63,189 nt of DNA, filler included, from Craspedostauros australis (GCA_030167865.1; 9 parts of 9 records of this genome joined end to end with filler, not necessarily neighbours in it), one strand, 5' to 3'. Shown: positions 11,708-42,146, counted from the whole stretch's first letter. The notes: generated from the sequence alone by a model not told the origin. A program made the numbers and translations.

Positions 11708-13375
11708 TCACTGGTCGTCATCATCGTCACTGCCATCGCCCTCCGCCACCAGCATCTTGCTCATGTAGGGACCGTCCAGCGTGTACCCCAGCTTTCTGTA
11801 GTAATGCCGCGTGCCGACACCCGAAATGACGAGAATCTTTTGCGATCCGTGCTCCTCCCTCGCAATGCGCTCCGCTTCCTCCATCAACAGCGTTCCGAAG
11901 CCCTGATGCTGGAACTTGGTGGGATCGCGCTCCGAAATGGCCACGGCCGAGCCGTAGACGTGCAGTTCGCGGATGATGCTGCAAGGAATATTGGTGATCT
12001 CCTTGAGGAATGCGGCGGAACTGGGCTTGCGCAGACGCAGCAAGCCGATGAGGATGTCCTGCGTGGGATCCTCGTACGAGATGAACGTCTCCCAACCCTC
12101 GTTGGCGACGTAATCGCGCCGAATCAATTCGACCTGATCGGGCGTGACCTGGCTGTGAATCTGCTTCATGCCGACCTCGCGCGTGCGAATGTCCCAGCAC
12201 GGCAAATCCCAATCCCTCATCTTTTGCAGCGCCAGCTCTCGCAGGTTGCCGTGCTCCACGCCGCTGCTGACCAAGGGCATCGGGATGTCTCGCTGGATGC
12301 GGTACAACCGCGTCCACGGCGGCACGAGGCTCAGGACCTTGGCGGTGAGCTCCACGAGCTGGTCCGGCGTGTAGTTCTGGTACCGTCCGGTCTTCCACAG
12401 TTCGTACAGCCCCGTGCCACGGATGACCAGAGTCGGATACAGCTTCATTCCGTCGCTGCGAAAGAGGGGATTCTCAAAGTACTCCTGGAATCCTTCGAGA
12501 TCGCGCTCGTATCCCATGTTGGGCAGATCCGGCATCATGTGCGTGACGACCTTGAACCCGCAGTCCTTGGCCAGGTGGAAGGAATGACAGACGGCAGCGA
12601 CGGTGTGGCCGCGGTTGGTCTCGCGCGCGACATTCTCGTAGATGGACTGCACGCCGATCTCGATGCGCGTGCATCCGTAGCTGAGCATCTCCTCTAGATG
12701 TGGCTTGAGGCAGTAATCGGGGCGCGTCTCGATCGTGATGCCGATGCACTTGGTCTTGGACTGTTCGGAATATCGGATGGATTCGGCGACGGAGTTTGAG
12801 TTGTATCCCGACAGGGCGTCGTGGAGGTTGCGCACGAAGTAGTCCTTGTACTCCTTGTCGAGGCTGAGGAAGGTGCCGCCCATGACGATGAACTCGACCT
12901 TGTCCACATCGTGGCCGATCGCCTTGAGCTGCGCCACGCGGCCCGTGACCTGCGAGTAGGGATCGTAGCGGGCCCGGATGGCGCGCATGGAGGTTGGTTC
13001 GTATCCCGTGTAGGCCTGCGTGCTGTACTCGAAGTCGGAGTCCGGTCCGCCGGGACAGTAGACGCAGACGTTGCCCGTGTAGGCGATGTGCGGACATCGA
13101 TGCGGCTTGCTCATGACGGCCACCACGGCAACGCCCGAAGCGGTCCGCACAGGCTTCGTCTTGAGGTACGGCCAGAGCTTGGAGCGGTACTGGATCGGCA
13201 GCGCCTGCAGGATGTCGGCCATCTTGGGGATGCCCTTGAGCTTGAACTTCTTGGAGGCGGTGCCCTTGAGCCTCGTGAAGTTGAGCGTCTCGCCATCCTC
13301 GTACGCCTTGATCAGGTCGTTCACGATGAACGAGATCGCCAGCGCGTAGTTAGACTTTGCGGACGATGTCGCCAT
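11708..13375 (-). CDS. ELP3: Elongator complex protein 3 (radical SAM + GNAT acetyltransferase), 555 aa, intronless
   Basis: [24 protein letters not shown]...CVYCPGG (Fe-S cysteines), IMGGTF-like [55 protein letters not shown]. Probable start is the ATG at 13375 (MATSSAK); the upstream ORF extension is low-complexity. Confidence 0.97.
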
Positions 13376-15340
13376 CGTGCCTCTATGTATGTGCGTCTGC
13401 GTCTGCGTGTGCTTGTGCGTGTGAGTGTGCTGCCGGGTATGGTGGATGCATTGTTTGATTCTGCCCAGCGCAGACTCCTCTCTTGATGGAGTTTCATCCT
13501 TCCGACATTTCTGTGTGTTTCGCGATGCCACGCAGGACCAACAAAGCAAAACATGGGCACAATGGCGCGCGAGTAGAAGGACAGACGTTGGGCATCCTGG
13601 TTGTGCACGAAACCTCTCATCAATCCGCACATGTTGGATGTGCTCGTACGAGCTATTCCATAATACTATTATATGAGCAGAGGACAATGAGAGTAGAGCA
13701 CATCGTGCATGGCCATCGAATCTCTAGAGAATATTATATTATATTCTGTGTAGTATGTCTAATACTCTATAATACAGAATAATAGGTAAATCAAATAATA
13801 CAGAGCATGATAGCAGTAATCAATGGAAGTTGCAGCGCCAATCTGCATAGGAGAGAAACCACAGGATGTCCGCGATTGCTCCACATCCGACCAGCGTCTT
13901 GGCTGTATACTAGCAGGATGATGCTGAAAATGGCAATCATGGAGTATGTATTACATGTAATCTCGTCTTGGTATTCTCCTCCTCCTCCACCACCACCATC
14001 TGCCAGTCATCAAATACTCGTACAATACTTCAATGCGTCTTCGCCATCATGCTCTGAGGCGATCTCTACGTGCTTTGAAATGTACCCAAACGCGTGACGT
14101 GAATGCATGCTACGCGCTCCACTGGCAAAATCCATCACAGATCGAACTAGAGAGCAATGCAGGTTTCATGCAGCTTGCTCCAACCCGCCACCTGTCTCCT
14201 TGAGAGAGCGAGAGAGAGAGAGAGAGTATCTCCACTTGCACCAACATCTGAAGAGTTCGTGCGATCAATAACCATGCAATCACGCCAATCCCACCACCAC
14301 CACCACATGTGGAGGAATTCTCCGAGGACATCAAACCTCGGCGTGTATCTCGATTGTTTTGACTGAGGCGATCATACCCGTGGCTCATCAGAGGAGGAGC
14401 AAAGCACCTCCACGAATGAGTTGAGTGAAGCGCTCTGCAACGCAAGCACTCAAGAGTACTGACACGAATATCCACGTACAGTCCTCCCAGTCCTCATTCA
14501 CCTCCTTTGTTGGTGAGTCTTCTTGGCGGATCTATTTTTGGTTACCCCAAGCTCATCGCAGAGACACTCCCGCATGTGGGGTCTGCAAGGTTCTGCTCCC
14601 AGGGACGAAACCTCGGCACCAGCCCATGATCAACCAATCTGGCTATCAAGTCAAAAAGCCCGCCCCGCCCATCCACCCACCAACGTGTGTTGGATCACGT
14701 TAACAAGACCGATAGGTCCCCCTCGCTGTGATGCCGGCCACATCAAGACTGGAGGTCGCCTCATCACCAAATCGCCCAATTGGGTCCTCACCAAGGTTGC
14801 TTCCCGTGGGAAGTCTTGTGGTGATTCGTTTTTGGGCAGGCCCTTTGATGGGCTGGACGATGATCTGTCGTGTCGTGTTGATGCCCAAGGACGCAGAAAC
14901 ACAGAAACGACGCGGTATGACTCATTCGAATGATATGAGAAGCATTCCTTCGACACAAATTGTGATGAACAGACCTTAAGTGACGCATGTCGCAGGACAG
15001 AAATGGCAAGAAGCGATTCTTGTTCTGTTCCACGTTCCTCACAAATTGAGTCGTTTTCACAACCCACGAGAAACCCACCTCTCGCCGTCCAAAAACCTCA
15101 GTTCACATAACACCAACAACCTGGCTAACAACAACGTCCAATCAAGCATCCACATCTAAAGACACATCTGTCTCCACAACACTCCACCCACAACATTCCA
15201 ACCAAGCAAGCAAGCAATCAAACACACAAAAGTTGCAATCGGATTCTCCAACAACAGCCACACACAACTTCACTCTCCAACGTACTCACGTCAATCACGT
15301 AACTCACGCGCACGCACACATACACACAAGACGTTGAAAG

Positions 15341-16852
15341 ATGATGAAGACGATCGGAAACCTGCTGCTTTTGGGCTCCATCCTCGCCGCCCCATGCGAG
15401 GCCCGTCTCTCCGGAACGACGAGGACCACCAGAACATCTTCCTCCGGACACACCATCACGCAGACGCGCACGGTTCGGCCACAACGTCAGGCGGAGGCAT
15501 ACCTGCCAGACAACCGTCACAAGGATGACACCTTGGTGGATACGCCAGAGAGCATGTTGCGTCGCAGCGGCCTTCGCAAGGACAACGTCCAGCATGAGAA
15601 GGAGGAGCACGGTCGCAACCTCCGCCACAAGCACCACCATCGCAGCGACGATGACAAGTTCCACCACCACCTCGATGGACATGCCGCGCACGAGCACAGC
15701 GAGCACTACTACCACCACGAGAAATACCACCAGTACGATGATGGTCACAAAGCGCAGAACAACCATGCCGGAGCCGATGACATGCTGCGCGGCAAGCGTC
15801 GCCAGTCCGGGTACCAGAAGGAGTCGACCACGAAGAAGGTGGAGCCATTGTACATCCTGCCACAATCCATGGAATCGCACTTCAACGAAACGCTCTTCGA
15901 ACTCCTTCACAACGCTCCATTCCAGATCTTTGAGGATGCCACGGGCCAGCGCCTCAGCGACGGCGAGTCCTTCCCAGTCTTCTCCATGCCAGAATGGTAC
16001 AACACCACCGGAATCTTCACCGCATTCTCCAAGACCGCCACACCCATGGTCATCGAGGCCACGCAGATCCTGCTGGACTGGAAGAACATCCAATCCACGG
16101 CCACCGGCGTGACACGATCCATCGAGGAGTACGCAGAGGAGCACAACTTCCGCGCCAGCTTGATCCTGGGACGTATCTTCGGCGCGGACTCTCGCAAGTC
16201 GAACTTCGTCGGCCTCGTCGCAAGCTACTACCAATTCGGTGTTGAGAAGAACGTGCTGGTCCCATTCGGACGCATCGAGGACTTCTTCGATGGCATGACC
16301 GAGAACCACATCCTAAACCCTTCGATGAGGAAGCTGGAGATGGACACCTTCAACAGCATGATGCAGCACAAGGGCACGTACAACGGCTCCGACAACAGCA
16401 TCCAAAGCAGCCACAAGCACGCACGCAAGCACAGCCACGACCACAACGCCACCTCGTTCGCCATTCCCGTGAACGTGGACATCAAGACCGCCAAGGAGGC
16501 ATCGATGGAGAACATCGAGATCACACGCTTCGAGCAGCTGTTCCAGGTGCTGATCCGCCGCGGATTCCTGTTCTCGTACGGATACGTCGACTGCCTGCAG
16601 CAGGACCCATACAACCTGCGCACTTGCCTTGACAACGTGTTCTACGACATTGTGCGACAGGAGACCAGCACGCGCGGTGCATTGGACGATGAGCTCGTCG
16701 AGATGTACGAGGAGCTGACAGAATACTTCCCGCAGTACTCGACAGAGGCCTGCATCAACGTGCAGGGTGGCGCGATGGATTACTTCGGCGCTGCGGGTTC
16801 ATGCTACAACAACGGCGCGCTACGTGGAATGCTGCAGTCCTATGTTTCATAA
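15341..16852 (+). CDS. Secreted hypothetical protein (503 aa) with His-rich N-terminal region
   Basis: Intact ORF with coding codon bias, signal-peptide-like MMKTIGNLLLLGSILAAPCEA, a His/Asp/Glu-rich tract, basic sites (RNLR, RGKRR) and a Cys-containing C-terminal domain. Confidence 0.85.
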   Translation: MMKTIGNLLLLGSILAAPCEARLSGTTRTTRTSSSGHTITQTRTVRPQRQAEAYLPDNRHKDDTLVDTPESMLRRSGLRKDNVQHEKEEHGRNLRHKHHHRSDDDKFHHHLDGHAAHEHSEHYYHHEKYHQYDDGHKAQNNHAGADDMLRGKRRQSGYQKESTTKKVEPLYILPQSMESHFNETLFELLHNAPFQIFEDATGQRLSDGESFPVFSMPEWYNTTGIFTAFSKTATPMVIEATQILLDWKNIQSTATGVTRSIEEYAEEHNFRASLILGRIFGADSRKSNFVGLVASYYQFGVEKNVLVPFGRIEDFFDGMTENHILNPSMRKLEMDTFNSMMQHKGTYNGSDNSIQSSHKHARKHSHDHNATSFAIPVNVDIKTAKEASMENIEITRFEQLFQVLIRRGFLFSYGYVDCLQQDPYNLRTCLDNVFYDIVRQETSTRGALDDELVEMYEELTEYFPQYSTEACINVQGGAMDYFGAAGSCYNNGALRGMLQSYVS

Positions 16853-18389
16853 GCAGCCAGCATCGTCACCCGCAGCAACCAACCATGAACAAACCGTGCG
16901 CGCATTGCACAATCGTTGCTTTTTCCGTCCGGAGACAAGAGTGTGATGCATCACACACTTGAGCACCATACATACTTGTACTCCGGACGAGCACAACGGC
17001 AACAGCTCGACACTGTGCGCATCCTGAGACACTTTCCCAGCGAACGAAACACGGCGCAAGACCAATTGCTTGCTGCTTCACCCTGGAGAATGCAGGATCT
17101 CACCGCACACGCACCCCAATGTACAATATCACATCACATCACATCACCAATCCCAGATCGCTTCTGGTGTACAGTAGCATTATTCATACACACAAAAAGA
17201 CAGAGCCGACGCGATGCTCCAACAAGCGGGACCTTGCCGCTGAGGAGGATACGGACACGCCATGCCACATGCACAGATACCGTCGGTATCCCTGCAGGAT
17301 GGCATGCATGCACAAGCATCCGCCCACGATCCTAAATCAAACACTAACAGATTACTAACGAAACACAAACAACACAACACGAAATGATGTGAGAGACGCA
17401 TCGAGTCATGAGTGGATCTGAAACACGAATCCTGTGACGAATTCGTCCGAAATGAGGTGCGCGATCGTGACGAAAGGCCGAAAATGGGACGCGATGAAAA
17501 ATGGAAACCAAACGGATGGGTGGTGGGAAGTTGGGAGAACAGTGGTGCGCGTGAGAGAGAGAAATAGAGAGGCGAATGTGCACTGTCGTGCACGGCACAA
17601 ACTGATGCCGCCACATCGAGTTGTCCCATTCCATTCCATTCTGCTCGACCCCAATCTGCTCTCATCGCACTCCCGTCAACAAACACTCGCTGAGGGGAGT
17701 CAAAGGAGGAAGCACTCGCCGACGGGAGCATTCATCAGCCCAATTCGGCCAAGGGCAGCCCCAACGGTATCATTGAGTCCAGCACGAAGACAAGACAAGA
17801 AAAAGAGATGTCGTGTGATCGGGTGTTGGCGCGCAAATGCATGCAGAGCACAGTCGCAGCAGCACATTCCCAACAACATCATCAGCTACAGCACATCAAC
17901 GGCATCAACAGCATCAACGGCATCAACTCCCACTCGCAGGAGACTGCATCAATCAACCAAACAGTCCATCCAACCTGCATCCACCCAATCAACCAACCTG
18001 CGTCCAACCATCCGCCGATGCAAGAGATACGAGCGACCGTATCCAAGCGAAGGCTGAGAATGACCGAATCGAATCCCCTTCACGTGACAAGACATTCCTC
18101 CGCTTTGCACGATTGGAAAGCACCGTCGGCGCCATCAGTATCGTCAGTACCACCACCATCATTGTCGTCGCAAAGGATGACCCACGATCCCCAGTCATCG
18201 CTGCCTCAGCCATCTCCGGCGCCGCAGTCGCCATCTTCAGTATCGGCGCCATCGGAATCCACAATGGCGTCCGCATCATCGCTATCGCGATCAGCAATTC
18301 AATCACAATCACAACTACAACTACAACCACTGCAACGACGATCATCACAAAGACGAAGGACGAGGACGAGGACGAGAACGAGGACAAAG

Positions 18390-21300
18390 ATGGACGAGAG
18401 AAACATACGATCGCGCACTTTTACACACGATCGTGGATCCCATCGCTTGACGCTCGTATTATGCGCGCTTGTGCATTTGTCACGACTGGTTTACGCTGCG
18501 GCAGCTGTGGAATCCATCATTGCGGACATGGGAGCATCCACGCAGCCGCAGCACATCATCATCGTCCAACCACCGCAGCTTAATATCAACCACAACGACG
18601 TCGGTTGTCCATCCATCGATGACATCTTCCCTTCGCGGCACATTCAGCTATTTGACGCCACATCATCACCACGCAACAATCGCACGGAGCCTGCAACCGT
18701 CCTCATCTTTCACAATCAAACCATCTGTGGGCGAGGCCGGCGCCAGCTGCATGTATCCTCGTATCCTGCGCACTCCTATGTGTTCGAACTGTGTTTAGAT
18801 TGTCAACATCGCTTCCGTTTGCACGCTGAGCCACTCGTTCCGGTCGCAACCACGACGGTGGTGTTGGGCGTTGGTAACCCGGCGCAACATGATGAACATC
18901 GGATGCAATACGATCAGGTCCGAGCCTACAGAATACGGCAGCCCACTTCGCAGGAAGAAAACGGTAGCGATCTTTCAAGTACGATCCTCCGATTGGAAGG
19001 ATCATCGCGCACGATGCAGATACAACAAGCGCGGCATGCATCGCAGTCAACGAGGCATCTGGAAGACTCCAACATCTTCTCAAGCAGCAGTGCAACAACG
19101 ACAAGAACATCAACGACGTCAACATCAACAACGACAAGAGTCAACTTCTTTGAGGTCGGACACTCCGCAGCATCCGGTGAAGAACTCACAGTGAATGAAT
19201 TCACGGCCGAACCACAGAACGTCACTACACCCAACGCAACCGCATTGCCCGCTTCTGCAACGCCAACCCAACACACGGGTTCGCCCACGTTTACGTCGAC
19301 GTCGAGTCAGCCGACGTTGCAATCCACGAATATGCCATCGGTCATGCCCACGACCATTTCTCCATCGTCCACGCCACCGACAGAAGCTGAATCGCTATCA
19401 TCTGCACCAACACAATCAACCACGCTGCCAACAGTCACAAATGCAGACTCCGACGACAACGCTGACGCCAACGCCAACGACAATGCCAACGACAATGCTA
19501 CTATCTCACAACCGCTCAACCGCACAGAGTACTTCAACAATACCGACCAAAAAACGAGCGACAAAGACGTCACTGTGGAATTCGTCATGGAAACCATCGA
19601 CGAAACCGACGTCCTCGACTTTGAACGTCCCCAAGAATGCGACTTGCGAATCCACCAATGCTGCAAGACGTTGGATTGCGCCACGCCCGGCAACATCTGC
19701 TCCAACCGCAATTGCATAGAACAGGGAAATCCGCGATTCACCCTCGAATGGGACGGCGATGATGACCTCGACCTCTACGTCGAAACACCCGGAGGTACCC
19801 TCCTCTTCCATGGCAACCTCGAGGACGCGGCATCGGGCGGTCGTGTCGCGGAGCCTGTCGATCAGTCCGGCAACGCCTTCTTCGTGGAGAGCATCGTGTT
19901 TCCCAACCGCGGTGCGCCAGGAGGAATCTACAAGTACTACGTGAGGCCATTGCTGGCGCGTAACAGGGCCGATCTATGGACGTTGCGAGTTGTCGAGAAT
20001 GGCGCGGAGGTCCGATCGCACATCGGTCGGGGATTCTCCGAGATCTTCTCCTACGATCGCGCCGTCAACAGCGAGCCGACCACATCGCCCATGCCGTCGC
20101 CGGCGCCCACCGTGCGGTCCTGTTCGACACCGTTTGACGAATGCTGCAGCGACAACCAGTGCTTGTTCGGTGGCGAGATCTGCGAGCACCGCAACTGCAT
20201 CGATCAGGGTGATCCGCGATTCACGCTGAAGTGGATCGGCGACGATGATCTCGATCTCTTTGTCGAAACGCCGAATGGGGCGGAGATATCCTTCAAACGA
20301 CTCATCGATCCAGAATCAGGCGGTCGCTTCGGAGAGGAGGTCGATCAGTTCGGTTCCGGCTACCACGTGGAGAATGTCTTCTTCCCCGCCGCTACCAGCC
20401 CGGCCGGTACCTACAAGTTCTTTGTGCGGCCGCTCATCACACGTGGCGACGCCTTCGACGAATGGACCATATCCGTTGTGGAGAATGGCAGCGAAATGGT
20501 GTCGTACACGGGACAAGGCATCTCCAGCGTATTCACATACAACAAGCAAACGGGGCCGACGAACGCACCGGTCAGCATGCCCACGACACAACCGCCGACA
20601 AACGGCGACTGCTCTATCTTCAATGATGAATGCTGCGCCGATACCGACTGTCAGGCTGGTGAGCTGTGCAAGCAAAAGAAATGCATCCAGGAGGGAAATC
20701 CGCGCTTCACGTTGTTCTGGGACGGCGATGACGATCTCGATCTGTTCGTGATCACGCCGGACGGGGTTGAGATCAATCCCGACGTCACCCTGGACATGTC
20801 CTCGGGTGGCCGAGTCGAGTTCGACCTCGACCAGACCGGATTCGGTATGCACATTGAAAATGCCTACTTCCCCATCCTCGGCGCGCCGCTCGGTGATTAT
20901 CGGTACGGCGTGCGCGTGGTCACACCGCGTGGAAACGGCGGCGATTTCTGGACCCTCGAGGTGCACGACGACGAGGAGCTGATCACGACGAACTTTGGAT
21001 TTGGCAATTCGCCGACCTTCACGTATGACCGCGAAGATGGCATCGAGGGACCGCAACGACCGCGGCCACCACCGCCACGTTGCAGCCCGATCTCGGATGA
21101 ATGCTGCATCGATTTGGACTGTCCTATCGACGATGATATATGCATCCAGAGGACGTGCATCAATGAAGGCAACCCGCGTATCGCGTTGGAATGGGTCGGC
21201 GACGACGTGTTGAATCTGCAAGTCCGCACGCCGCAAGGGCAGACCATCTTCAAGGGCAACATCGTGGATTCGTTGTCCGGCGGAAGGTTCGAAGAGGATT

Positions 21301-24300
21301 CGCGACAAGGGACCTTCGACTTTCATGTGCAGAATGTGTACTTTCCCACCTTCGGAGCGCCCATCGGTACCTACTCGTACTTTGTCGGCTCCTCCGCGAT
21401 CAATGGCTTCGGTGCAGATATCTGGACCATCCGAGTGCACGAGGACGGCAATGAAGTTCAGATGCAAACCGGTATTGGCGGAAATTCCAGAGTCTTCCTG
21501 TACGAACGATTGATGACGAACACAATCAGCCCGGCACCTGTCGCCCAGCCAACTTTGGCACCTGTAATGGCACCGACCATGCCGCCGTTCCCACCACAGT
21601 GCGACACATCCACAGACCAGTGCTGTGCGGATGCAGACTGCAATCAATCCAACCAAGTCTGCGTGCAACGAACTTGCATCGACAACGGGAATCCGCGAAT
21701 TCAACTGACATGGACAGGGTAAGTGCAATGCAGCGAAATGGAATATGACGAAGCGACACCATGGCATGTGCATACCGTCGTATGGTATGCGCACATGTAC
21801 GTGTGTGAGCGGCGTCATGTGTTTTTGTCTGCGCTGTGTTGTTGTGTTTCAGTGGATCGTTACGTATGGCATGCATTCCACCGACGTTGCAATAGATTAG
21901 TATCGACGAACTGCTATCTTCCATCTCCACTGTCTCTCTCTCTCTCTTGCTCACACTTACGATCTGAATATTTTTCCTTCTCTATTCGCCGACGTGTCCA
22001 AATCAACGACTGCGCAGCGATGATGACTTGGCATTACAAGTCCAGATCCCTGGAGGCGCGATCATCTCGGTATTCAACCCGATCGATCTTCAATCAGGTG
22101 GTCGGTTTGGAGGAAACTCAGTTCAGTCCGGACTTGGTCTCCACGTGGAGAACGTCTACTTTGCCACCCTTCCCGCTCCTCTCGGTATCTACCAGATCTC
22201 CGTGTCGACAGTTCAGACACGAGGCGCGTCGGATCAATGGCGCATTGATGTCTACGAAAACGACAGGGAGGTGGCCTTTCTCGTGGGGACTGGCAACTCG
22301 GTGCTGACCTACGATCGCAACGCATTGCCAGGGCCTACTCAGGCACCAGCGTCATCGCCAATTCCTGCTCCAACTCCAGAACGGCCGCCACCCAACCCAG
22401 ACAATCCACGACCATGCCCACATGAATGCTGTGCCACCAGCGACTGCCCAGCACAGGACAACGAGGTTTGCGTCCAACGCACCTGCGTCGAGGAAGGAAA
22501 TCCAAGATTCACGCTTACATGGACAGGGTGAGTAGTCATGCATGCCCGTACACTGCTGAATCGTCCCTTTGCTGCATTCTCTGGATCCCTTGAAGCTGTC
22601 ATCGTATCGTATTGACCACGACGGCGTGACACGTTTGTCACATGCCTACATAGGAGTCACTCGACCACACACGCACGCACGCAAGAAGCCGAAACAAAAT
22701 ACTCACAGTTGTATTGCACCCACTTCGCTATTCACAACCTCCCAACTTTCCTCTCTGCATGATGATACATCTTGGCGTTCCATGGAATGCGCAGAAATGA
22801 TGATCTGAGCCTTGTCGTCATCACTCCAGGTGGAGCCACGATATCATACCTGTCGCCGTTCGATTCGGTCTCTGGAGGAGAATTCAATGAAGACTCAAGA
22901 CAGCTGAGCTTTGGCTTCCACGTGGAGAGCATCAACTTCCCGCTCGCAGGTGGTCCCGTTGGAACTTACTCCTACTTCGTCAGGCGATTTGACACGCAGG
23001 GAACCGACGATCGCTGGGCTCTGCGAGTCTTCGTGAACGGAAGGCAGCTTGATTGGAACACTGGGACGGGAGATTCGCGGACGTATCAATTCACCTTTGA
23101 TGGGAGCGTCATGTTCCCGACAGCAGCACCAGGACGGCCCACGATTGCGCCAACGCAAATGCCTGTGACGGTGCCGACGGTAGTGACGTCAGCTCCCACC
23201 CGAGCACCTTCACCAAATATCCTTCCAACCCAACGACCATCTAGACCGGACAGATCATGCCTCATCGATTCCGACTGTTTGGCAGACTTTGAGGTGTGCG
23301 TCCAGCGCCAGTGCATCGACGACGGCAACCCGCGCTTCACTCTCCTCTGGACAGGAAATGACGACCTTGAGCTCTTGGTCGAAACGCCTGGCGGTGCCAC
23401 CATCTCCCGCGACAATCGGTTCGATCCAGAATCGAGGGGCTTCTTTGGCGAATCGAGTCTCCAAACACAGTTCGGAGGTCATGTTGAAAACATCTTCTTC
23501 CCTCAGGGTGGCGGGCCCACGGGAACTTACACCTACTTCGTCACCAGCTCCAATCAAGTCGGCGCCAATGATCAATGGTCGGTCTCCGTTGTGGTGAACG
23601 GCCAGACGGTGGCCTTTAATCAAGGTGCCGGAGGTTCCACGATGTTCACGTACGTCTTCGGTGGCGGCATCTTCCCAACGCCAACACCAACGACCGGACC
23701 GCCAAGTTTGACAGCGGCACCGATCATCCAACCGCCGACAACTGCGCCAACGGAGACCCCGACTCAATCGCCAACAAGGCTCATGCCTGTTGTCACAACT
23801 GGTCCCACACCAAGCTTTTGTTCCGTGGAACTTGATCCCAGCGTGGAGTGCTGCAACGACTCTGATTGCGTCTTTGGCAACGAAGCCTGTATTTTGCGCG
23901 CTTGCGTCGACGAAGGAAATCCGCGCTTTACATTGAGTTGGACTGGGTACGTTTTACTGTCATCGTTCGAGACATGGAATTCAAATTCAACGACGATGAT
24001 GACCATCGCGAGGGCGCTTATGTTCGCATGCATGTTGGCATGAATGGTTTATGCTGATGAAGTGTCACAACACCACATTGCATTTCGACTCAACTCGACC
24101 TTCTTTTTCACTTCTTCCATTTTCCAATTTCAAACTCCAACACAATCGAATCTTGCAGCGACGACGATCTTGACCTTCTCGTCATGACTCCGTTGGGGAC
24201 TGTGGTCTCCCTCGCTAATCCGTTCGATGAAGGATCCGGCGGCTTGTTTGGAGAAGATGGGAATCAATTCAACTTCGGTCGACATGTCGAGAATGCGTAC

Positions 24301-27300
24301 TTTCCAACGGAAGGAGGACCATTCGGAACGTATTCATACTTTGTACGAAGTTTCTTGAAGGAAGGCACCGACGATGTCTGGACCGTCGGAGTGTACGTGC
24401 ATGGAGTCGAAGTTGACACAATCACTTCAACTGGGAGCTCGGATCGGCTGACCTACGAGTTCTTCGGTCTGCCGCCGACCACGCCTCCCGTGCAGGCCCC
24501 AGAACCAACCCCATGCAACATCATCGAGGAGGAATGCTGCTCGGATGCACAATGCATGACGGGGGTTGAGGTTTGCGTGCAGCGGACTTGCGTCGATCGA
24601 GGAAATCCTCGCTTCAGCCTCACATGGACAGGGTACGTGGCCATGGGGCAATTTCATCGCAGTCGCATTGCGACTGCATTGCACTTGCATTCGGCGTTGA
24701 TTCAACGTTGTGCGAAGAAGCTGCAATGCCTAACGCAGCGTCATCACTGCCCATCTCATTTTCTTCTATTTCGCGGGTATGTCTCACATTGCTCGTGTAT
24801 ATTCTTCTCTTCCGGCACTTCTATTGTGATGCGCCTGCCGTGCGACTGCACAATTTCCCTTCTGCTGCTCTCAACCCACGATAGTGACGACGATCTTGAT
24901 CTGCGAGTCGAAACGCCATTCAGCACGGTCATTTCGTTCCTCGACCCTGTGGACCAGGCATCAGGTGGCGTGTATGGAGAAACTGGCGTCCAGCAGGGCC
25001 TTGGGATGCATGTTGAGAATGTCTTCTTCCCTCTTGAAGGCACCAGACGCGGGCGGTACCAGTACACGGTTGGAAACTTCGAGCAACGGGGATCGAGCGA
25101 TCGTTGGACCGTGAGCGTGTACGTGGATGACAAGCTTGTGGCTGTCAAATCTGGCAACGGCGCGGGCGGTCCCTTCATATATGACTTTGGTAATGACTCC
25201 ACGGTCGACGTCCCAACATCATCACCAACGGAGTGCATTGCTGACTTGGGCATGTGCTGTGACGATTCCGACTGCAACACAAACGAGCTGTGCACACAGC
25301 AAATTTGCATCGACCGAGGTATCCCGAGGTTTACGCTTACGTGGGCCGGGTGAGTGAACTTGTCATTTTGGCGCCTTCGCAGCTTCGTTCCCACGCAAAT
25401 CCATGCAAATTCATTTCAATCCAAGAATATGCCTCTCACACATCACATCGGCTTGCAACTTCGGTCTCATTGTATCTGTCCATTCCAACTCGTATCTATC
25501 TGTCCATCCGTTCCATCTCCATACGAATACAACAGCGATGATGATCTTGACTTGATTGTCGTCACGCCATTGGAAACAACAATCTCCGTTGCCAATCCGA
25601 TGGACGAGAAATCCATGGGAGTGTTTGGAGAATCTGGCGATCAGCTGAGAGCAGGCGAGCATGTGGAGAACATCTTCTTCCCGTTGACAGGTGGTGGTGG
25701 GCCGGAGGGAACATACACCTACTACGTGTCACCGTACATCATCAACGGAAACGCTGATGAATGGACTGTCAGCGTGTATATCGACACTACGCTGGTTAGC
25801 GCCATCACTGGTTCCGGACCCTCCGATACTCTCACCTTCGTCTTCCGCGACGGAATGGGACAAGTGGTGACAGACCGATGCAATCTGATGGAAGATGAGT
25901 GTTGTGAAGATTCAGACTGTTCAAGCACTGAGTTGTGCATCCAGCGGTCGTGCGTCGATCAAGGGGAACCACGGTTCACACTGACATGGACTGGGTAAGT
26001 GAATTGATGCAGCCACGAGCGTTGGTTTGAAGTGTCTGCTTGATGCACAGTTGGAATGGAATACAGGCTTTCCTTTGGGTGCATGACTAGTATGTGTTCA
26101 CTGCAGCATGTTGTATGCACTACGTCTTCCAATTCAAAACGAGTTGCTGTCGCACTCCTGTTCACGCATTATCACAAATAAACCACCAGCATCTCTCTCA
26201 CACACCCTCCATCCATCCTTCCACCCATCCATTCTGTGTTTTGGTTTTGCAGAAATGACGATGTGGATCTCGTGGTCACAGGACCTGTGGGCGGTGAAAT
26301 CTCGTTCATCAATCAGATGGATGTGGATTCCGGTGGCGTCTTTGGCGAAGATGGAATTCAGACGGCATTTGGAATGCACCTGGAGAATATCTACTTCCCA
26401 ACCGGGATGGCGCCTGCTGGCAACTACACGTACGAAGTGCGTGCGTTCCGACAGGTGGAGACTCCGGATCCTTGGTTGTTGCGAATCTATCTCGGCACGG
26501 AGCTCGTCATGTCAGAACGCGGATCTGGAAGCACCGGGGAGCGGCAATTCGTTTACTCACGCAACGCCCTGATGGCAACACGAAGCAGCATGAACGAATG
26601 CTCCATCGAGAGAGACGAGTGCTGTGCAACTTCTGACTGCCGCGGGGCTGGCGAGCTGTGCGTCTACAGGAGCTGCATCCACAAGGGTTCGCCACGGATG
26701 ACACTGACGTGGACCGGCAACGATGACTACGACTTGCAGGTCACGACTCCCGAGGCCACCCTTGTGTCGTTCCTGCATCCGCTCGACTCTGCCACAGGCG
26801 GGCGATTCAACACCATCGGAGCACAGTTTGGGTATGGTAATCACGTGGAGAGCATCTACTTCCCGCCAGCCATGACGATTTCTGACAATTCGTTGATCTC
26901 CAAAACCACCTCTGATTTGTTGGTGGATGCGCCCTTCGGTGACTACTCCATCGACGTCCTCAGCTTTGGTTCGGACGGAAGCACGACGTCTGATTCATGG
27001 CGATTGCAAGTCTTCGTGGGTGATGTCCAGGTGTACGATCATTCGGGGATGGGGACGAAGAAGCACATGGTGTACAACTACCAAGGTGCCAGCGCCGCCA
27101 CTGCCGCACAAGTGCATGACACCAGCGGGACCATCATGGCCAGCGGAGCCAGGAACAACAAGATGGTTTGCATGCGAACCTCCGAAAGCCCCTGCTGTCG
27201 GCACGAAGACTGCAATCCATCACAGCCTTTACCCTCGGACACCAGCTATGTCAGCGGCAGCAGCAGCAATAATGGCGATGGGATCTTCAAGAAGATCTGC

Positions 27301-27660
27301 GTCCAGCAATCCTGCATCTCGAACGGCAACTATCGGATCACGCTGCAATGGCACGGCGCTCAGGATCTCTACGACCTGTCCATCACGACACCGAACTGGC
27401 AAACTATGACCGAGACGAACGGCAACGACTCCGTGATCTCCAGATGGGCATCCATCCATAAATCGCAGCGACATGCCATCACCGTGTACTTGGACGATGC
27501 CGTGCCGCTGGGAACGTACGTGATCGTCGTGAAGTGCAAGGATGATGAAACGTCGAAACTGGCAGATCAAGATCGATGGATCGTCGGCGTTGGTGACGGA
27601 AGTCACGAAGTCACACACTCTGGGGTTGGCACTGGGTACTTTCTTTACCAGCACACGTAA
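18390..27660 (+). CDS. Giant extracellular multi-module protein (~2598 aa; ~2792 aa if started at 17808) with 13 x [Cys-rich motif + YfaP/DUF2135-like domain]
   Basis: join(18390..21718,22018..22527,22795..23946,24159..24632,24885..25349,25536..25994,26253..27660) gives one open frame of 7797 nt. Repeat consensus: C-x-ECCxDxDC-x-CxQRxCIDxGNPRFTLxWxGxDDLDLxVxTPxG...SGG...G.HVENIxFP...GxYxYxV...DxWxxxV, separated by Pro/Thr linkers. Hydrophobic N-terminal segment LTLVLCALVHLSRLVYA. Start codon uncertain. Confidence 0.88.
21719..22017 (+). other. Intron 1 of giant gene (phase 2, 299 bp)
   Basis: TGG ACA GG|GTAAGT...TGCGCAG|C GAT GAT GAC TTG restores WTGDDDL. Confidence 0.9.
22528..22794 (+). 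other. Intron 2 of giant gene (phase 2, 267 bp)
   Basis: TGG ACA GG|GTGAGT...GCGCAG|A AAT GAT GAT CTG restores WTGNDDL. Confidence 0.9.
23947..24158 (+). other. Intron 3 of giant gene (phase 2, 212 bp)
   Basis: TGG ACT GG|GTACGT...TTGCAG|C GAC GAC GAT CTT restores WTGDDDL. Confidence 0.9.
24633..24884 (+). other. Intron 4 of giant gene (phase 2, 252 bp, no in-frame stop)
   Basis: TGG ACA GG|GTACGT...CGATAG|T GAC GAC GAT CTT restores WTGDDDL. Confidence 0.88.
25350..25535 (+). other. Intron 5 of giant gene (phase 2, 186 bp)
   Basis: TGG GCC GG|GTGAGT...CAACAG|C GAT GAT GAT CTT restores WAGDDDL. Confidence 0.9.
25995..26252 (+). other. Intron 6 of giant gene (phase 2, 258 bp)
   Basis: TGG ACT GG|GTAAGT...TTTTGCAG|A AAT GAC GAT GTG restores WTGNDDV. 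Confidence 0.9.
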
Positions 27661-28043
27661 ACAAATATTATATAATATTATAGAGTACTCGAAGCTGTGC
27701 AACGATGTGATGATGTGAAGTGCGTGCTTGTGAATGGTGCATGCGGATACGACTGCGATAGATTATTACTTGGAGTGCGAATGCTGTACCATGTATGGTA
27801 CTAGTAGTGATGTATATGTTGGCAGTGTGCTCGATTGGAGATCGTGTTGCAGAGATACGAGATGCTCTCTGAAGCACAGTCCTGTGTGGTGTGCATGTAG
27901 TAGAATATATGTTTGTAAATACGAAGTTCTCATTGCCTTGGGCTTCATTGTGGGGGCTTCATTGCGGCGGCTTCGTTCGATTGGGTTTGTGGATGGAGAG
28001 GGGCGTCATCGCGAAGAAGTTGCCGTTGCTGTGAATGTCATCA

Positions 28044-29708
28044 TTAGAGCCACTGCATGTGACCGGATGTGATGAGCACGGTTTCGAAGATCAAACTTGC
28101 GTTGTGCTTGCCTTTCCGGTGACACACCTCGGGGATCAAGGACTTGATGGTGGCCGCGTCGTGCTGGTGGACCATTTGGGACCATCGGGCCTTGAACTGC
28201 TTCAACTTTAAGCGGCTCTCGACGAATGGGAGTATTTCATGGAATACTGTCTCACCGTCCATCATGTCAAAGATGCGGCTGGTCACTATGATGTCTTCGT
28301 CGCCGTCGAACTCGGTGAGTTTCAAATCATCAAGATGCGAGCTCTTCCTGACAGCTTCGAATAACGAGGCACTCACGGCATCGTATTCATCGTCGTCACC
28401 ATCGTAGTCAAAGTCATACTCGTCGTTTTCGGAGTCATTGTCGTTCCTGTTGGTGTCGCCGCCCGCGTCGCCGCCTGCGTCTCTACGCATATCACCACCC
28501 ATGCTGTCATCATCAGATGAGCTCTGGACTTCGAATTCCACTCGGGCGACGTACTTCACGGAACGAAGATGCTTGGTCTGAATCAACTTCAGCAAGCCCG
28601 GGAGCCAAGCCGCTCTGTCGCATAAGAAGTATAGCTCGATCTTCGCGAGCTCCTCGTGCCTGCAGATTGAATCGATGACGTTGTGCATCCGTGGAGTTGG
28701 GAGGATGTCGTCATTGTGACGCAAATCGATACGCAACCGGGTGATGGACGAAAAGCGTGGTAGTTTTTGAAGGAACCGAGAGCGTTCGAAGTTGCATTTC
28801 TTGAAACCAAGGGTTTTTGTGAAGCATCCCTCCTCCTTGAAGGGCAGCTCGAAGTGTGGCACATCGATATTGCAATGCTCCAAGTGCAACGAGACCGCCA
28901 AACGTAGCGCGCATCGCATAAACTGCAGGTCTAAGCCGTCTTCTTCGACATGTCGGATAAACAACGAGCCGATCGGCAATGCCTTGATGTTGCGTTTTTT
29001 GTTGTTGTTGTTGTTGTTGCGATCCAGGAAAGGGTTGCACCAGAGCAGCCAGAAAAAGTCTGTGCTTGCCGTCAACGTGCACTTCCGTTTGTCGACCTCC
29101 ACACTGCTTCCGAATGAAGTTCTGATGAGTCTGCACAACCACCCGTAACGAGCAGCAAACTCTTTCTGCTCGAGAGGGTCTCCCTCCATGCCGAAATAGA
29201 AGTCGTAAGTCCTGAAGTTGATGCAGAACACGCCCTGGCTGCTATCCAAAGCGTCTGCTGACATGAATACGTCGTCATCGTCGAATGCGTCGTCCTCCAC
29301 CACGAGCACACGCAGGTTGTCATCGAAGTAGACCTTCGTGTTGTCCGGCACAAACTGGTTGAAGTCTTCCCACGTGGCCCCAGCGCGCGCCTCGGAATGC
29401 GGAAATGTGAAATGGTACCCGTGGGGGCAAAACTGGTCGTAAGGCTGGGGGCAGTATCTGGTATTTGTGCCGTAATCCAGGGGCGAACATTGCGTCTCGT
29501 TCTTCTTGTGCTTCTTTTTGCTGTTTCGTTTCCGCTTTCCGTCTGCTCCCTTGTTCTTGTCGCGGCTCCCACCACGATTCCTCTCATGGCCAGGAGGGCG
29601 ATGCTCGAAACAGCGGCGCCATCCCTTGGTGAGTTTATCCTTGATCCGCCCCAACTCGGCTTCATCTGGACGGTACGGCAACGAGATCGTAAGGCTGATC
29701 TTCACCAT
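28044..29708 (-). CDS. Hypothetical protein (554 aa), possibly with degenerate LRR/RNI-like repeats
   Basis: Long intact ORF with a basic NLS-like N-terminal patch (KRKRNSKKKHKK), LxxLxL-like segments (SLHLEHCNI, ITRLRIDL, LAKIELY, LDDLKL) and an acidic tract. Confidence 0.7.
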   Translation of the reverse strand: MVKISLTISLPYRPDEAELGRIKDKLTKGWRRCFEHRPPGHERNRGGSRDKNKGADGKRKRNSKKKHKKNETQCSPLDYGTNTRYCPQPYDQFCPHGYHFTFPHSEARAGATWEDFNQFVPDNTKVYFDDNLRVLVVEDDAFDDDDVFMSADALDSSQGVFCINFRTYDFYFGMEGDPLEQKEFAARYGWLCRLIRTSFGSSVEVDKRKCTLTASTDFFWLLWCNPFLDRNNNNNNKKRNIKALPIGSLFIRHVEEDGLDLQFMRCALRLAVSLHLEHCNIDVPHFELPFKEEGCFTKTLGFKKCNFERSRFLQKLPRFSSITRLRIDLRHNDDILPTPRMHNVIDSICRHEELAKIELYFLCDRAAWLPGLLKLIQTKHLRSVKYVARVEFEVQSSSDDDSMGGDMRRDAGGDAGGDTNRNDNDSENDEYDFDYDGDDDEYDAVSASLFEAVRKSSHLDDLKLTEFDGDEDIIVTSRIFDMMDGETVFHEILPFVESRLKLKQFKARWSQMVHQHDAATIKSLIPEVCHRKGKHNASLIFETVLITSGHMQWL

Positions 29709-30553
29709 GTTTGCTCACGTGATGTTCTCTCGGCCAAGGGGGTATATCGTGGCATCAAGTTTGCCACGGTGGATGGTGCGAGTGTGTATACGCAGTGGTC
29801 CAATCAGGCTCGTCCTCGTCCTCGGATGGGGAGGTGTCGAGTGGAGTATTTGTGGGCATGTGATCAAGCTGGCTGTGATGGAAGCTCCAGACGTTGCGTC
29901 TTTGTTGTTGTGAAGTCCGTCCATGGTGGAAGCAAGTTCAGCTTCTGGACTCTGGAGAGCGCAGAGAGATGATGTCACCGAACAGGTTCTGATTGTGGAC
30001 GTGCGTGCTTGGATTTGGCCGTCGCAGCTTTTCTTGTGTTCGGATGTTGTGGCTTCTCGTGGCCAATCTGCCCGCGAGGATCGCTGAAGAGGTCGCGCTG
30101 TTGGTTTCCACGTTGCTGGAGAGTACTGCCCCAACGCGTACTGCCTCGCGGCAACAGTGATGGCGCGCTTCGCAATTCGAATCTCCGCCGAAAAGGCGAT
30201 TCTCTGTGTGAACAGTCGCATTGATCCAATCACCACACATGCTGACGACGATTTGGTACCCGTGACTAAGTACAGTCACTAATCAATCATCACGTTTCTG
30301 GGACACCCGGCAAAAAGCAACGGAAACGTATTTCGACTAGTACGACTACTTTGACATCCAAAACCAATTTTGTCACTCAGACACAAGAAGCCCGCAATTG
30401 ACATTTCACGATTGGCGAAGAACGAATCTCCTCTCGAAGAACTTACTGAGGAATTCTGTTGGACCTATTTCGGAGAAACAAACCGAGGCATTGATGCCGC
30501 TGGCCAAATTGATCGAGTCCCGTCTATACCGATGACAAACAGCTTCTAATTCT

Positions 30554-30707: not shown

Positions 30708-30807
30708 NNNNNNNNNNNNNNNNNNNNNNNNNNNNNNNNNNNNNNNNNNNNTTAATTAATTAANNNNNNNNNNNNNNNNNNNNNNNNNNNNNNNNNNNNN
30801 NNNNNNN
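30708..30807. other. Artificial scaffold-join spacer (first of eight)
   Basis: 44 N + TTAATTAATTAA (stops in all six frames) + 44 N. Identical spacers at 33180-33279, 37707-37806, 42047-42146, 48495-48594, 51282-51381, 56509-56608 and 58166-58265. Confidence 0.98.
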
Positions 30808-33179
30808 TGAACTCAGACGCCAGCCTCTTCAACGTGCGGCACATCAAGTCCTTCATCCAAGTGGGAGACAGCACGAAGCTGGACTCTCCCAAGATCGGAT
30901 CCATCCGCTTGAAGGTCAAGCAGCGCGACAACACTGGCCACATTTTCNNNNNNNNNNNNNNNNNNNNNNNNNNNNNNNNNNNNNNNNNNNNNNNNNNNNN
31001 NNNNNNNNNNNNNNNNNNNNNNNNNNNNNNNNNNNNNNNNNNNNNNNNNNNNNNNNNNNNNNNNNNNNNNNNNNNNNNNNNNNNNNNNNNNNNNNNNNNN
31101 NNNNNNNNNNNNNGATTCATCACAGGAGTGCAGATGCATCCCATCATGCCAACTGAGGATGACAAGGCTTCCACAGCCATCATCAAGAGCCCATCCAAGG
31201 AGGTGAGCGTGGTGAACTTGCATCGAATGCTCCATCACGCACCACTTGAGACCATGAAGCGGACAGCTGCTCAATATGGATGGAAGATCATCGGCGAGAT
31301 GCTGGTGTGTCGCGACTGTGCTGTCGCGAATGCGAGAGTGAAGAACATCTCAAAGACTAGAATCCCAAGAGTGACTCGCCGTGGCGAACGCCTCTTCATC
31401 AATATCAGTTACACTAAACACATAGGCTTCGGAGATAAACGCTACTGGACCTTGATCGTGGACGGCTTCACGGACTACTGCTGGAGCTTCTTTCTGAAGA
31501 ACAAGAGGGGCCAACCAGGGTATCAAACGATTCATGCAGACGATCAAGTCACACACAGGTGATCAACAAATCATTTTCCAAGGCAATAACAGCGGAGAGA
31601 ACAAATCCACGCAGGATACTCTCATCGATGCAGGACTGAATGCAAAATTCGAGTCCATGGCGTCCAACACGCCACAGCGGAATGGTAGAGTAGAACGCAA
31701 GTTTGCGTATCTCTACACCAAGATCCGCTCCATGCTCAACGGAGCACAACTCAACAACAAATAGAGGCATGGCCTGTGGGCAGCAGCTGCAAGCACTGCC
31801 ACTGCCATTGCCAACTCTTTGACAGCAATCCACCATACGCAGATGCACTCCGCACATTTGGAGAAGTGGGTGTCGTGAAGACTACCTATGGCGGGATCAC
31901 CGCCAAGCTCAAGAATAGAGGAGAAGAGATGGTGTTCATTGGATATGCACACCAACATGCATCAGGAGTGTACAACATGCACAGACCATCGACCAAGTCA
32001 CTGGTCTGTTTCTGCAACATCAAATGGCTCAACCAATCATATGGACAGTTCTGTGGCTGGGCGCAAGCACCAAACACACTCAACGATTCAGAAATGACGA
32101 ATGCAGATAGCTTCACAACCATTGGACGGAAGGGAGCAACGCCAAGGACGGCAATGCATCAAACAACAGAACCAAGGAGAGTATCCTTTGCCAACACGAA
32201 CAAGTATCACATCCTATCGGACAGCGATGATGAGGATGAGGAAGCAGCAACCCAACTGCTCGAGAACGAGGAAGATCGGAGCGAGTCCGACCCTGAGGAT
32301 GACGAGATCCTACCATCCGGCGACGAAGCCNACGATGACAAGGGCATCACTCCTCTGAACACACCAGCGAGGCCTGCGCGTGGTACACCATCAAGACCTC
32401 CACCAACCAAACCAAGCAAGCGTGACATAGACAGAAAGGAGAGACTCCGATGTCACAAAGCAAGAGGCAGGAAGGGACAGAACAATCCCAAGGCAACTGC
32501 AGGGAAGAAGATTCCCAAAGCACTGTGCGCGCTTGCAGACAACAACAGACCAGGTCAAAAGGAACAAGGTGATGAGAACGAATCATCATCAAACGAGGAG
32601 ACCGACAAACTCAGCGACAAGTTAGCTGACGAACTGAGTGATGACAACAAGAACACAGACGATGAGGAAATCATAGATGAGGAAGAAGAGACAGAGGTTA
32701 TCCATCACAGCACCAACAGACTATACGGGATGAATGCAATCGTTGCCGAGATACCAGCGATCGACATCGGACTGTCGATTCAGGACCAGAACGAAGAATC
32801 CGAGAAGCACATCGAACCGACGACGTTCAATGGGGCGTTCAATCATCCGGATCCCATCCATCGAAAGGGATACCGAGCAGCCATCAAGAAAGATTTCAGC
32901 TCCATGGATACACGCAAGGTGTACAGCAAGATCAAACGAGACGCCACCCCACGAGGCCGCAGATGCTGCAAGTGCAAATGGGTCTTCAAGTTGAAGCGTG
33001 ACGGCACACATCGAGCGCGACTCGTTGCATGTGGCTATTCGCAAGTCGCAGGAGTGGACTTCCAAGAACACTACTCACCTGTCATCCACGATGTAACATA
33101 TCGAGTCATGATGGTGATCATGCTGATCAAGAAGATGGACTGCGCACTCGTCGATGTCGTAACGGCATTCCTACACGGA
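30808..33179 (+). mobile_element. Degenerate Ty1/copia pol fragment (pre-integrase zinc motif, integrase, start of RT)
   Basis: LHRMLHH...CRDC, YWTLIVDGFTDYCWSFFLKNK, TPQRNGRVERKF, CKWVFKLKRDGTHRARLVACGYSQVAGVDF, DVVTAFLHG. INT precedes RT; frameshifts and stops present. Confidence 0.93.
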
Positions 33180-33569
33180 NNNNNNNNNNNNNNNNNNNNN
33201 NNNNNNNNNNNNNNNNNNNNNNNTTAATTAATTAANNNNNNNNNNNNNNNNNNNNNNNNNNNNNNNNNNNNNNNNNNNNTTCGGTCACCGGTCAATGGGG
33301 ACATGAAGGGAAAATACCAATTTTCAGCAATTTTTCAGTGACATCATGGTATATTGCAACTAGAATGTTTACCAGAACTTTCGCAGAGGAAAATCAACGA
33401 CAACAACAACAACAGCAAAAATGATGGAGATTCATCGAACTTGCATCTCTTTAAATTGTATCAGCATGGTGCACGTGAATATTCTGAACAGAGTGGTGTG
33501 CATCGGCTGGTGTCTTCTGCCATGGGTTTGCAATGCGACCGAGGATGTCAATAGGACTGAGAGTGTGAA

Positions 33570-39086: not shown

Positions 39087-39174
39087 GGACCGCAGGCACT
39101 GCTTGTTCGTCACCTGCCGCACCACACGGTGCTAACTGCACCATGGCGAACGCGCTCCATCACAGCGATGCCGC

Positions 39175-41280: not shown

Positions 41281-42046
41281 AGGCAGCTTTCATTGTCGTA
41301 AGTCCGATCCTGCTATTCCCATCTCTCCTCTGGCACCTGCTCGCATCCACATTCACAGCATACGTCCTGGCATTATCCGCCAACTGTCACCAAACCTTAA
41401 ACCACGTCAACATCATGCGCGGACGCAAGAACCATCGAGTCTGTCGCTCCAAAGCACCACCGACCATATTTGCCTCAACGCAACGTATGAGGATGGGCTT
41501 CTGGAGTCGTCTCTTCCTTCTATCCGCTGTAATGATCCCATCGACGACACTATTCTTCCTTTCAACTCTCACTACCGATCGCTGGAAACACCCACAACGC
41601 TTTTACAACAAACACCAGCCTCTCGACTACGATCAACTGCTCTTTGGCGACGGATGGAACGACGAGCACACACGCAAGAACGACCCGCTGCCAGCTCACT
41701 TCCTTCATCTCTCCGGATTCCATGATGAGTTTGACTCATTCATGATGAACCGACGCATTGCCGCAGATGCCCAACAACGCGCAATGTCTCTACCTCCGTC
41801 TCAACCAAAGCACTGCTTTTCGATCACTCCATCTTTCTTCACCCTTCAGTCAGATAAACTTCGAACACAGGTGCAAGCCGTCTCCTATCTGGCCTCCACT
41901 GCCTATGAAGCATCCAAAGCACCGAACTTCATGGACGTTCTCGTCTCCCGTCACTACCATACTCCCGGTCTCACCAACAAGCGCGCCATGTGTCCCATCA
42001 TCCTCGACACTGGGTGCTCATTCTCCATGACATATCGAAAGGAGGA
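41271..42046 (+). CDS. pol: Pol N-terminus in the -1 frame (hydrophobic region, then aspartic protease motif), truncated by scaffold end
   Basis: The -1 frame is open from slippery GGGTTTT (41271-41277) through IILDTGCSFSMT. Confidence 0.75.
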
Positions 42047-42146
42047 NNNNNNNNNNNNNNNNNNNNNNNNNNNNNNNNNNNNNNNNNNNNTTAATTAATT
42101 AANNNNNNNNNNNNNNNNNNNNNNNNNNNNNNNNNNNNNNNNNNNN

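Follow-up and report, generated by a model that had tools for sequence, protein, structure and literature searches.

Six Predicted Introns at One Glycine Codon of a Tandem Module in a Gene of the Diatom Craspedostauros australis

Same-phase exon duplication is known from animal matrix and plasma proteins, and from apolipoprotein(a), whose kringle IV repeats have an intron inside each kringle. Such genes combine a repeated module, an intron placed at the same codon and in the same phase in many of the copies, internal exons whose lengths are divisible by three, and a copy number that differs between relatives. The gene described here, which comes from a raphid pennate (Bacillariaceae-like) diatom, resembles them in all of these respects. 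It lies on the + strand, at 18390-27660, of a stretch of 63,189 nucleotides (nt) of Craspedostauros australis (GCA_030167865.1; parts of nine records of the genome joined end to end with filler), hereafter called the window, and it encodes a protein with 13 tandem modules, six of which would be split by an intron at one and the same Gly codon.

The window gene also differs from the animal tandem-module genes. Its intron is placed inside the fold, in a predicted turn between two β strands, and not at a domain border; it occurs in only six of the 13 copies; its host is an intron-poor diatom; and its orthologs are apparently intronless. How few introns a diatom can have is seen in Phaeodactylum, with a mean of 0.7 introns per gene and 53% of the genes intronless (PMC5859163). 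In short, a familiar pattern, that of introns repeating with a tandem module, is met here in a group of organisms whose genes usually have few introns or none.

Gene model and splice-site anatomy

Before splicing, the + strand offers a stop-free frame from 17694 to 21722 and then shorter open frames of changing phase, until a stop is reached at 27660. Removal of six GT-AG intervals makes the frame continuous, and the resulting coding sequence (CDS) of seven exons has 7797 nt, or 2598 codons from the ATG at 18390, with no internal stop. This ATG (MDERNIR...) is a putative start, placed by alignment to the N-termini of the orthologs. Each frame break comes after TGG-NNN-GG, which reads W-T in five introns and W-A in one, so that all six introns are in phase 2, between the second and third bases of the Gly codon of W-x-G|DDD. 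The donors are consensus-like in all six cases and follow the pattern GT[AG][AC]GT (GTAAGT, GTGAGT, and GTACGT, two of each), the acceptors are CAG in five introns and TAG in one (at 24884), and N-GAY/AAY-GAY stands directly after each of them. An earlier note on this DNA had proposed that all six introns split the same Gly codon, with GTRAGT or GTACGT donors, YAG acceptors, and internal exons of 510, 1152, 474, 465, and 459 nt; the splice sites and the restored frame agree with this proposal in every detail, the split site being present in 6 of the 13 modules.

Exon 1 (18390..21718; all exons and introns are on the + strand) encodes a signal-like stretch, the N-terminal region, a Ser/Thr-rich region, modules 1-4, and the Cys knot and first β strand (β1) of module 5, and it ends in TGG ACA GG. 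Intron 1 (21719..22017, 299 nt, GTAAGT...CAG) then interrupts the Gly codon of module 5, as does every later intron, in phase 2, for its own module. Exon 2 (22018..22527, 510 nt) holds the remainder of the module 5 sandwich, a linker, and the Cys knot and β1 of module 6, whose Gly codon is split by intron 2 (22528..22794, 267 nt, GTGAGT...CAG). Exon 3 (22795..23946, 1152 nt) is longer because it comprises two units, namely the remainder of module 6, the entire module 7, with its W-T-G-N-D-D unbroken at 23348, and the knot and β1 of module 8. It is followed by intron 3 (23947..24158, 212 nt, GTACGT...CAG) in module 8, exon 4 (24159..24632, 474 nt), intron 4 (24633..24884, 252 nt, GTACGT...TAG) in module 9, exon 5 (24885..25349, 465 nt), intron 5 (25350..25535, 186 nt, GTGAGT...CAG) in module 10, where the tripeptide is W-A-G, exon 6 (25536..25994, 459 nt), and intron 6 (25995..26252, 258 nt, GTAAGT...CAG) in module 11. 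Finally, exon 7 (26253..27660) encodes the remainder of module 11, module 12, which is unsplit and has an insert of 17 residues, the degenerate module 13, and the stop codon. Accordingly, the split modules are 5, 6, 8, 9, 10, and 11, and modules 1-4, 7, 12, and 13 are unsplit.

At each junction, splicing rebuilds the form W-x-G-D/N-D-D-L-x-L, exactly as it stands in the seven modules of this gene that are not split, and as it is found in 311 of the 354 motifs of a scan of 173 homologs. Without splicing, introns 1 and 3 shift the frame, the donor reads Gly-stop in introns 1, 2, 5, and 6, and intron 3 contains an internal stop, so that only intron 4 is open in frame. The introns have a GC content of 0.43-0.51, the exons of 0.52-0.57. 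A (CT)n microsatellite is located near 21930-21950 in intron 1.

Judged on this anatomy, the model of seven exons and six introns is very probably correct. Its junctions are predicted from sequence, which leaves some room for a pseudogene in decay, or for an error of assembly, with insertions that break the repeat by chance. Such an origin is most improbable, as the six interruptions all have the form GT[AG][AC]GT...YAG, their removal restores the frame exactly, and all 13 modules retain the Cys pattern and the conserved residues, with neither a stop nor a frame shift over 7.8 kb. The only public run that matches the stretch, with a share of words of 0.11, provides one contig of 3090 letters over 26765-28500 and beyond, the kind of the run being presumably RNA but perhaps DNA; the contig passes from the last exon through intergenic space to a convergent ORF (open reading frame) on the minus strand at 28044-29714, and it spans none of the six junctions.

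The module and its predicted fold

The protein begins with a signal-like N-terminus, followed by the N-terminal region, the Ser/Thr-rich stretch, and the 13 tandem modules, with Pro/Thr-rich linkers between them. From this N-terminus and these linkers, a secreted, surface-type protein is plausible. Each module consists of a six-Cys knot (C-x6-CC-x4-C-x6-C-x4-C), the stretch G-N-P-R-F-T-L-x-W-x-G-D-D-D-L-D-L, and a β domain, which together make a knot and a β sandwich of ∼110 residues. The fold was predicted for module 2 from 30 aligned module sequences, and the model has a mean predicted local distance difference test (pLDDT) score of 89.6 and a predicted template modeling (pTM) score of 0.83. 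In this model, β1 is R-F-T-L-K-W-I-G (residues 33-40) and β2 is D-L-D-L-F-V-E (residues 43-49). As the split Gly ends β1, the intron would be placed in the β1-β2 turn, inside the sandwich, and each internal exon is predicted to run from β2 to the last strand of one sandwich, through the linker and the next Cys knot, to the next β1. The description of the exons as circularly permuted modules, given by the earlier note, is apt in the light of this model. Conservation within the module is highest in the segment just upstream of the introns, β1 itself (R-F-T-L-x-W-x-G).

The best structural matches to the module model are a TerD homolog, 2qz7_B (Z 8.0, root mean square deviation 3.5, 115 residues aligned), and TerD, 2kxt (Z 6.8), where a Z around 8 falls, according to the search tool, within the range of common arrangements. 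Further matches are the C-terminal β domains of subtilisin-like proteases, with Z 6.0-6.4. Foldseek returned no match at E ≤ 1e-3; for TerD it gave a probability of 1.00 together with E 5e-3 and a template modeling (TM) score of 0.43-0.45. No family match at E ≤ 1 was obtained from Pfam, with the modules of exon 1, exon 3, and exon 7 as queries, or from NCBIfam, and the DUF2135/YfaP profile (PF09906) did not match at E ≤ 1 either, although JGI labels some of the homologs "YfaP (DUF2135 family)". As for the ESM Atlas, DUF2135 received a score of 0.80 and is carried by 10% of the cluster members, and all the atlas scores are below 0.9. The acidic stretch D-D-D-L-D-L after β1 of the window module is reminiscent of the TerD-type calcium-binding β sandwich; TerD differs in that it has no counterpart to the Cys knot that precedes the sandwich. 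On the basis of the model, then, the sandwich of the module may be called weakly TerD-like.

Age of the array and history of its introns

The homologs of the window protein are diatom proteins, from Bacillariaceae metagenome-assembled genomes (MAGs), Cylindrotheca, Nitzschia, and Fragilaria, together with many metagenome ORFs. They include six co-linear orthologs: P0024 (with its full-length cluster mate P0192), P0025, P0026, P0027, P0028, and P0034, the last being a gene model of Nitzschia sp. Nitz4. The Bacillariaceae orthologs share with the window protein the N-terminal region, the co-linear modules, and the degenerate module at the C-terminus. Identity to the window protein is 41-46% overall, and 56% for P0024 over a query made of the four modules of exon 1; each of P0024-P0028 and P0192 contains 12-15 motifs, all contiguous. 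Among themselves, the modules of the window protein have 28-54% identity; with a module of P0024, ten of them, namely 1-4 and 6-11, have 53-66%, and these best matches follow the order of the modules.

In trees of 74 and 85 modules, the modules are grouped by position and not by species; support reaches 100 for module 3 and 99 for modules 6 and 9, and among the remaining modules it is mostly 87-97. Since modules from different lineages group by position, the array must have been complete in their common ancestor, and it predates the splits of six other diatom lineages.

The history that we favour, with a confidence only a little better than even, places an intron early in the growth of this array. 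The ancestral module would have carried an intron at or beside the β1-β2 turn, and this intron would have been duplicated along with the module during the growth of the array, well before the split of the present Bacillariaceae lineages. Later, it would have been removed from modules 7 and 12 of the window gene, and perhaps from modules 1-4, and several related lineages would have lost it from the entire gene. In such a history, the six introns would be copies of one intron, the relatives would have lost theirs, and splicing would probably be constitutive. Inheritance is favoured by general experience, and in the available portion of one review parallel gain is estimated to account for ∼8% of shared intron positions (PMC3488318).

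The six introns themselves carry little trace of where they came from. The best match between any two of them is 13 nt long, and their only matches elsewhere in the window are low-complexity runs, which for intron 1 are CT-rich. The scores of the intron ends for terminal inverted repeats lie within the range of shuffled sequences in all six cases, and neither target-site duplications nor flanking direct repeats were found around the six introns. Tandem duplication of exon sequence was considered as an origin and set aside, as six-frame translations compared with the module profile gave no signal (best E 0.57). Nor do the introns look like introners, i.e., transposon-derived introns, since they have neither mutual similarity nor terminal inverted repeats, and no family of them was found in the 63 kb window over which one was sought. 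To judge from their sequences, the introns look old, and an old duplication of the array fits the absence of similarity among them.

Introns at or near the same turn can be recognized in more distant members of the family. P0076 and the annotated P0016 of Fragilaria crotonensis are identical in 229 of 269 columns, with 33 columns that form a gap in the model; P0076, an unspliced ORF, ends in T-W-S-G-S-K-S, and P0016 goes on with T-W-S-G-N-D-D-H-T-L. This contrast reads as that of an unspliced and a spliced version of A|GTAAG...ag|AT. At least 24 of the 173 homologs derail right after W-x-G (G-K in 6, G-E in 4, S-K in 4, G-T in 2, K in 1, and x-G-K/E/T/I/R in 7), and four further homologs do so beyond those 24; such ends are those given by read-through of [G/A]|GT[AG]AG. 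Besides, at least 10 ORFs of ∼150-230 amino acids (aa) have the shape of an exon, in that they begin just before DD-L-D-L and finish just after W-x-G. Two metagenome proteins, P0014 and P0022, read through short introns at W-x-G that are open in frame, and resume at D-D-x-x-x-L; the database entries thus hold ∼22-30 spurious residues, and P0014 has Hint (hedgehog/intein-like) domains in addition.

The distant members (P0016/P0076, P0014, and P0022) therefore resemble the window gene in having an intron in the β1-β2 turn and ORFs of permuted modules. They differ from it in the exact site, as their introns are in phase 1, in the first or second codon after the Gly, 2 or 5 nt downstream of the phase 2 site of the window. 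An alignment illusion was excluded as the source of the 2-nt offset, because the donor GT and the spacing of D-D-D fix the window site at GG|N.

A closer, if fragile, parallel is provided by the Nitz4 model P0034, which lies in a clade with P0028, P0025, and P0026, supported by 90-98 across the modules. In module 6 of this model, an exon begins exactly at the N of N-D-D-L-S-L and follows directly on the end of module 4 (...Y-A-Y-V-R|N-D-D-L-S-L). As an uninterrupted T-G-N offers no AG in any phase, the Nitz4 intron would end at, or within 2 nt of, the acceptor of window intron 2. The gene model thus hints that Nitz4 shares the intron site in module 6, and, if the hint is real, the intron would be ancestral and lost several times. 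The public model (scaffold90:32378-38032) spans 5655 nt for a CDS of 4701 nt, an excess of 954 nt, and is probably wrong in two places: module 3 lacks its Cys knot and first strands (residues ∼85-100), and the end of module 4 is fused to β2 of module 6 (residues ∼320-325).

Several observations weigh against the inheritance of one old intron. First, the Nitz4 hint depends on a single automatic gene model that is visibly defective elsewhere. Second, the exact phase 2 site was found in none of the 173 database proteins, none of which ends in W-x-G-stop, the ending that a GTAAGT or GTGAGT intron at a window-type site would produce, and the review PMC3488318, in its available portion, reports no support for intron sliding beyond 1 nt. 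Third, a tree of the window modules only does not unite the six intron-bearing modules in one clade, so that the intron label needs four changes, and when these modules are held as one clade the tree is marginally rejected (approximately unbiased test, p-AU 0.042). Modules 6-12 do form a clade (91/90), which includes the intronless modules 7 and 12; with this nesting and the p-AU value, a history of single origin needs losses within the window gene too, and the pattern is compatible with duplication followed by loss.

Fourth, the orthologs of at least three lineages, P0192/P0024, P0027, and P0028, appear as single uninterrupted ORFs, unlike the window gene with its six introns. P0192 is an ORF of 2778 aa on a contig of 15.5 kb, and P0024 one of 2484 aa on a contig of 30.9 kb, with a GTG start that is a sign of a gene caller without an intron model. 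P0027, together with two near-identical copies from other assemblies, has 2503-2505 aa on contigs of 13.4-15.2 kb, and P0028 has 2437 aa on a contig of 22.5 kb. These orthologs are known from their proteins, and the contigs are taken as genomic from their size of 13-31 kb with one ORF of 7-8 kb. No DNA of the orthologs was found in genome contigs and viral contigs, and no exon-sized homolog (86-275 aa) in a word-indexed protein search. The metagenome scan for the DNA of relatives returned a single locus, L001, which holds the 5' part of another ortholog, namely modules 1-4, a region intronless in the window gene too. If the uninterrupted orthologs are indeed intronless, either each of their lineages lost all the introns or the lineage of the window gene gained six.

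The second option is parallel, lineage-specific gain, in which the ancestor was intronless and six independent insertions struck the same codon, the DNA or chromatin at the β1-β2 turn being a preferred site of insertion or fixation. We consider it unlikely but a serious contender, in view of orthologs that appear intronless, a unique phase, and further intron positions clustered close by. Uninterrupted ORFs across all modules in three or more lineages and a phase 2 site absent from the 173 other proteins speak for it, and the two further intron positions of the family, within 5 nt, resemble a repeatedly used hot spot. The lack of common sequence among the six introns is likewise expected if they are not copies of each other. 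The six introns also stand out locally, since neighbouring genes (an ELP3 gene of 671 codons, and ORFs of 504 and 556 codons) are single ORFs without introns. Moreover, introner elements are reported in stramenopile algae, one diatom included, according to the available portion of PMC12130899.

On the other side, six insertions at one codon of one gene require a very specific mechanism, of which no signature was found: the exon flanks are not the classical protosplice site (A/C)AG|G, and the window holds no intron family. Module 7 shares the junction sequence TGGACAGGAAAT with module 6, yet it has no intron. The Nitz4 model, which hints that module 6 of a distant ortholog has an intron here, and the low share of shared positions ascribed to parallel gain (∼8%, available portion of PMC3488318) count against it as well. 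A stronger form of the same idea, that the turn after W-x-G is a true hot spot of intron insertion, with six gains here and those of other diatoms 2 and 5 nt away in paralogous genes, seems more doubtful still. Were it true, the hot spot would provide replicate, datable intron gains in a defined context of sequence and structure, within an intron-poor group.

Inheritance of one old intron with later loss thus remains the reading that we prefer. The earlier note took the exons as clearly recording that the gene grew by exon duplication. It speaks for this that six modules are split at one codon and in one phase, but the wording is too strong, because the modules are divergent (28-54% identity) and the introns share no sequence, and because the array predates the lineages while several of its orthologs are uninterrupted ORFs.

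Splicing outcomes, neighbourhood, and significance

The five internal exons are all of phase 2-2 and divisible by three, so the arithmetic of the earlier note, by which any subset of them could be dropped in frame, is right. This raises regulated cassette skipping, in which the symmetric exons would be combined variously to give an in-frame ladder of isoforms with varying module number and chimeric sandwiches. With β1 the most conserved part of the module, such sandwiches could plausibly fold. Exon skipping is also reported for a diatom, as 2,444 of 12,177 Phaeodactylum genes are listed under it, next to 2,924 with intron retention; only 1,730 genes have more than one intron, fewer than the "exon skipping" genes, and in our reading this category is therefore not strict cassette skipping (PMC5859163).

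Despite these points, we think that regulated skipping is quite improbable. Where a repeat is periodic and its introns occupy one homologous site, equal phase and lengths divisible by three are an automatic outcome, so that the symmetry of the exons is not separate evidence for cassette splicing or regulated skipping. Furthermore, the apparently intronless orthologs make the same architecture, with a module number that varies from 12 to 15 without introns. The gene combines short introns (186-299 nt), long exons (459-1152 nt), and six strong donors. Short introns, long exons, and strong donors favour intron definition, where errors lead to retention and not to skipping. Retention of intron 4 would leave the frame open and place 84 more residues between β1 and β2 of module 9, and it is, as far as the reading frame indicates, the one in-frame alternative offered by the sequence itself.

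Regarding the neighbourhood, the gene upstream (15338-16852, +) is a single ORF of 504 codons; its start is signal-like, it contains a His-rich stretch, and no Pfam family matches it. Its relative is found beside the ortholog in L001 (5002-5772), at the same place and in the same orientation, with 37% identity (E 1e-60). Further upstream, the ELP3-type gene (11708-13723, -) is an unbroken ORF of 671 codons with the domains ELP3_N, Radical_SAM, and GNAT. Elsewhere in the window are pieces of Copia-type retrotransposons (30756-33227, +; 44115-48542, +; 51523-53067, -), with the Pfam domains RVT_2, gag_pre-integrs, and SH3_retrovirus; the ORFs 44115-46022 and 46023-48542 are in one frame, with a single stop codon between them. 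The ORF at 42095-43459 (-) has an AMP-binding enzyme domain (E 7e-44), and the two + strand ORFs beside it, 39136-41280 and 41265-42098, have no Pfam family.

Two aspects of this gene may be of wider use. The module matches no curated family and is abundant in secreted proteins of diatoms, and for this it merits a name, with calcium binding as the obvious candidate function. As for the introns, their interest lies in the contrast with the apparently intronless orthologs and in the cluster of intron positions that the whole family has in one structural turn; with both, the family is a compact system in which to set wholesale intron loss against repeated gain at one site.

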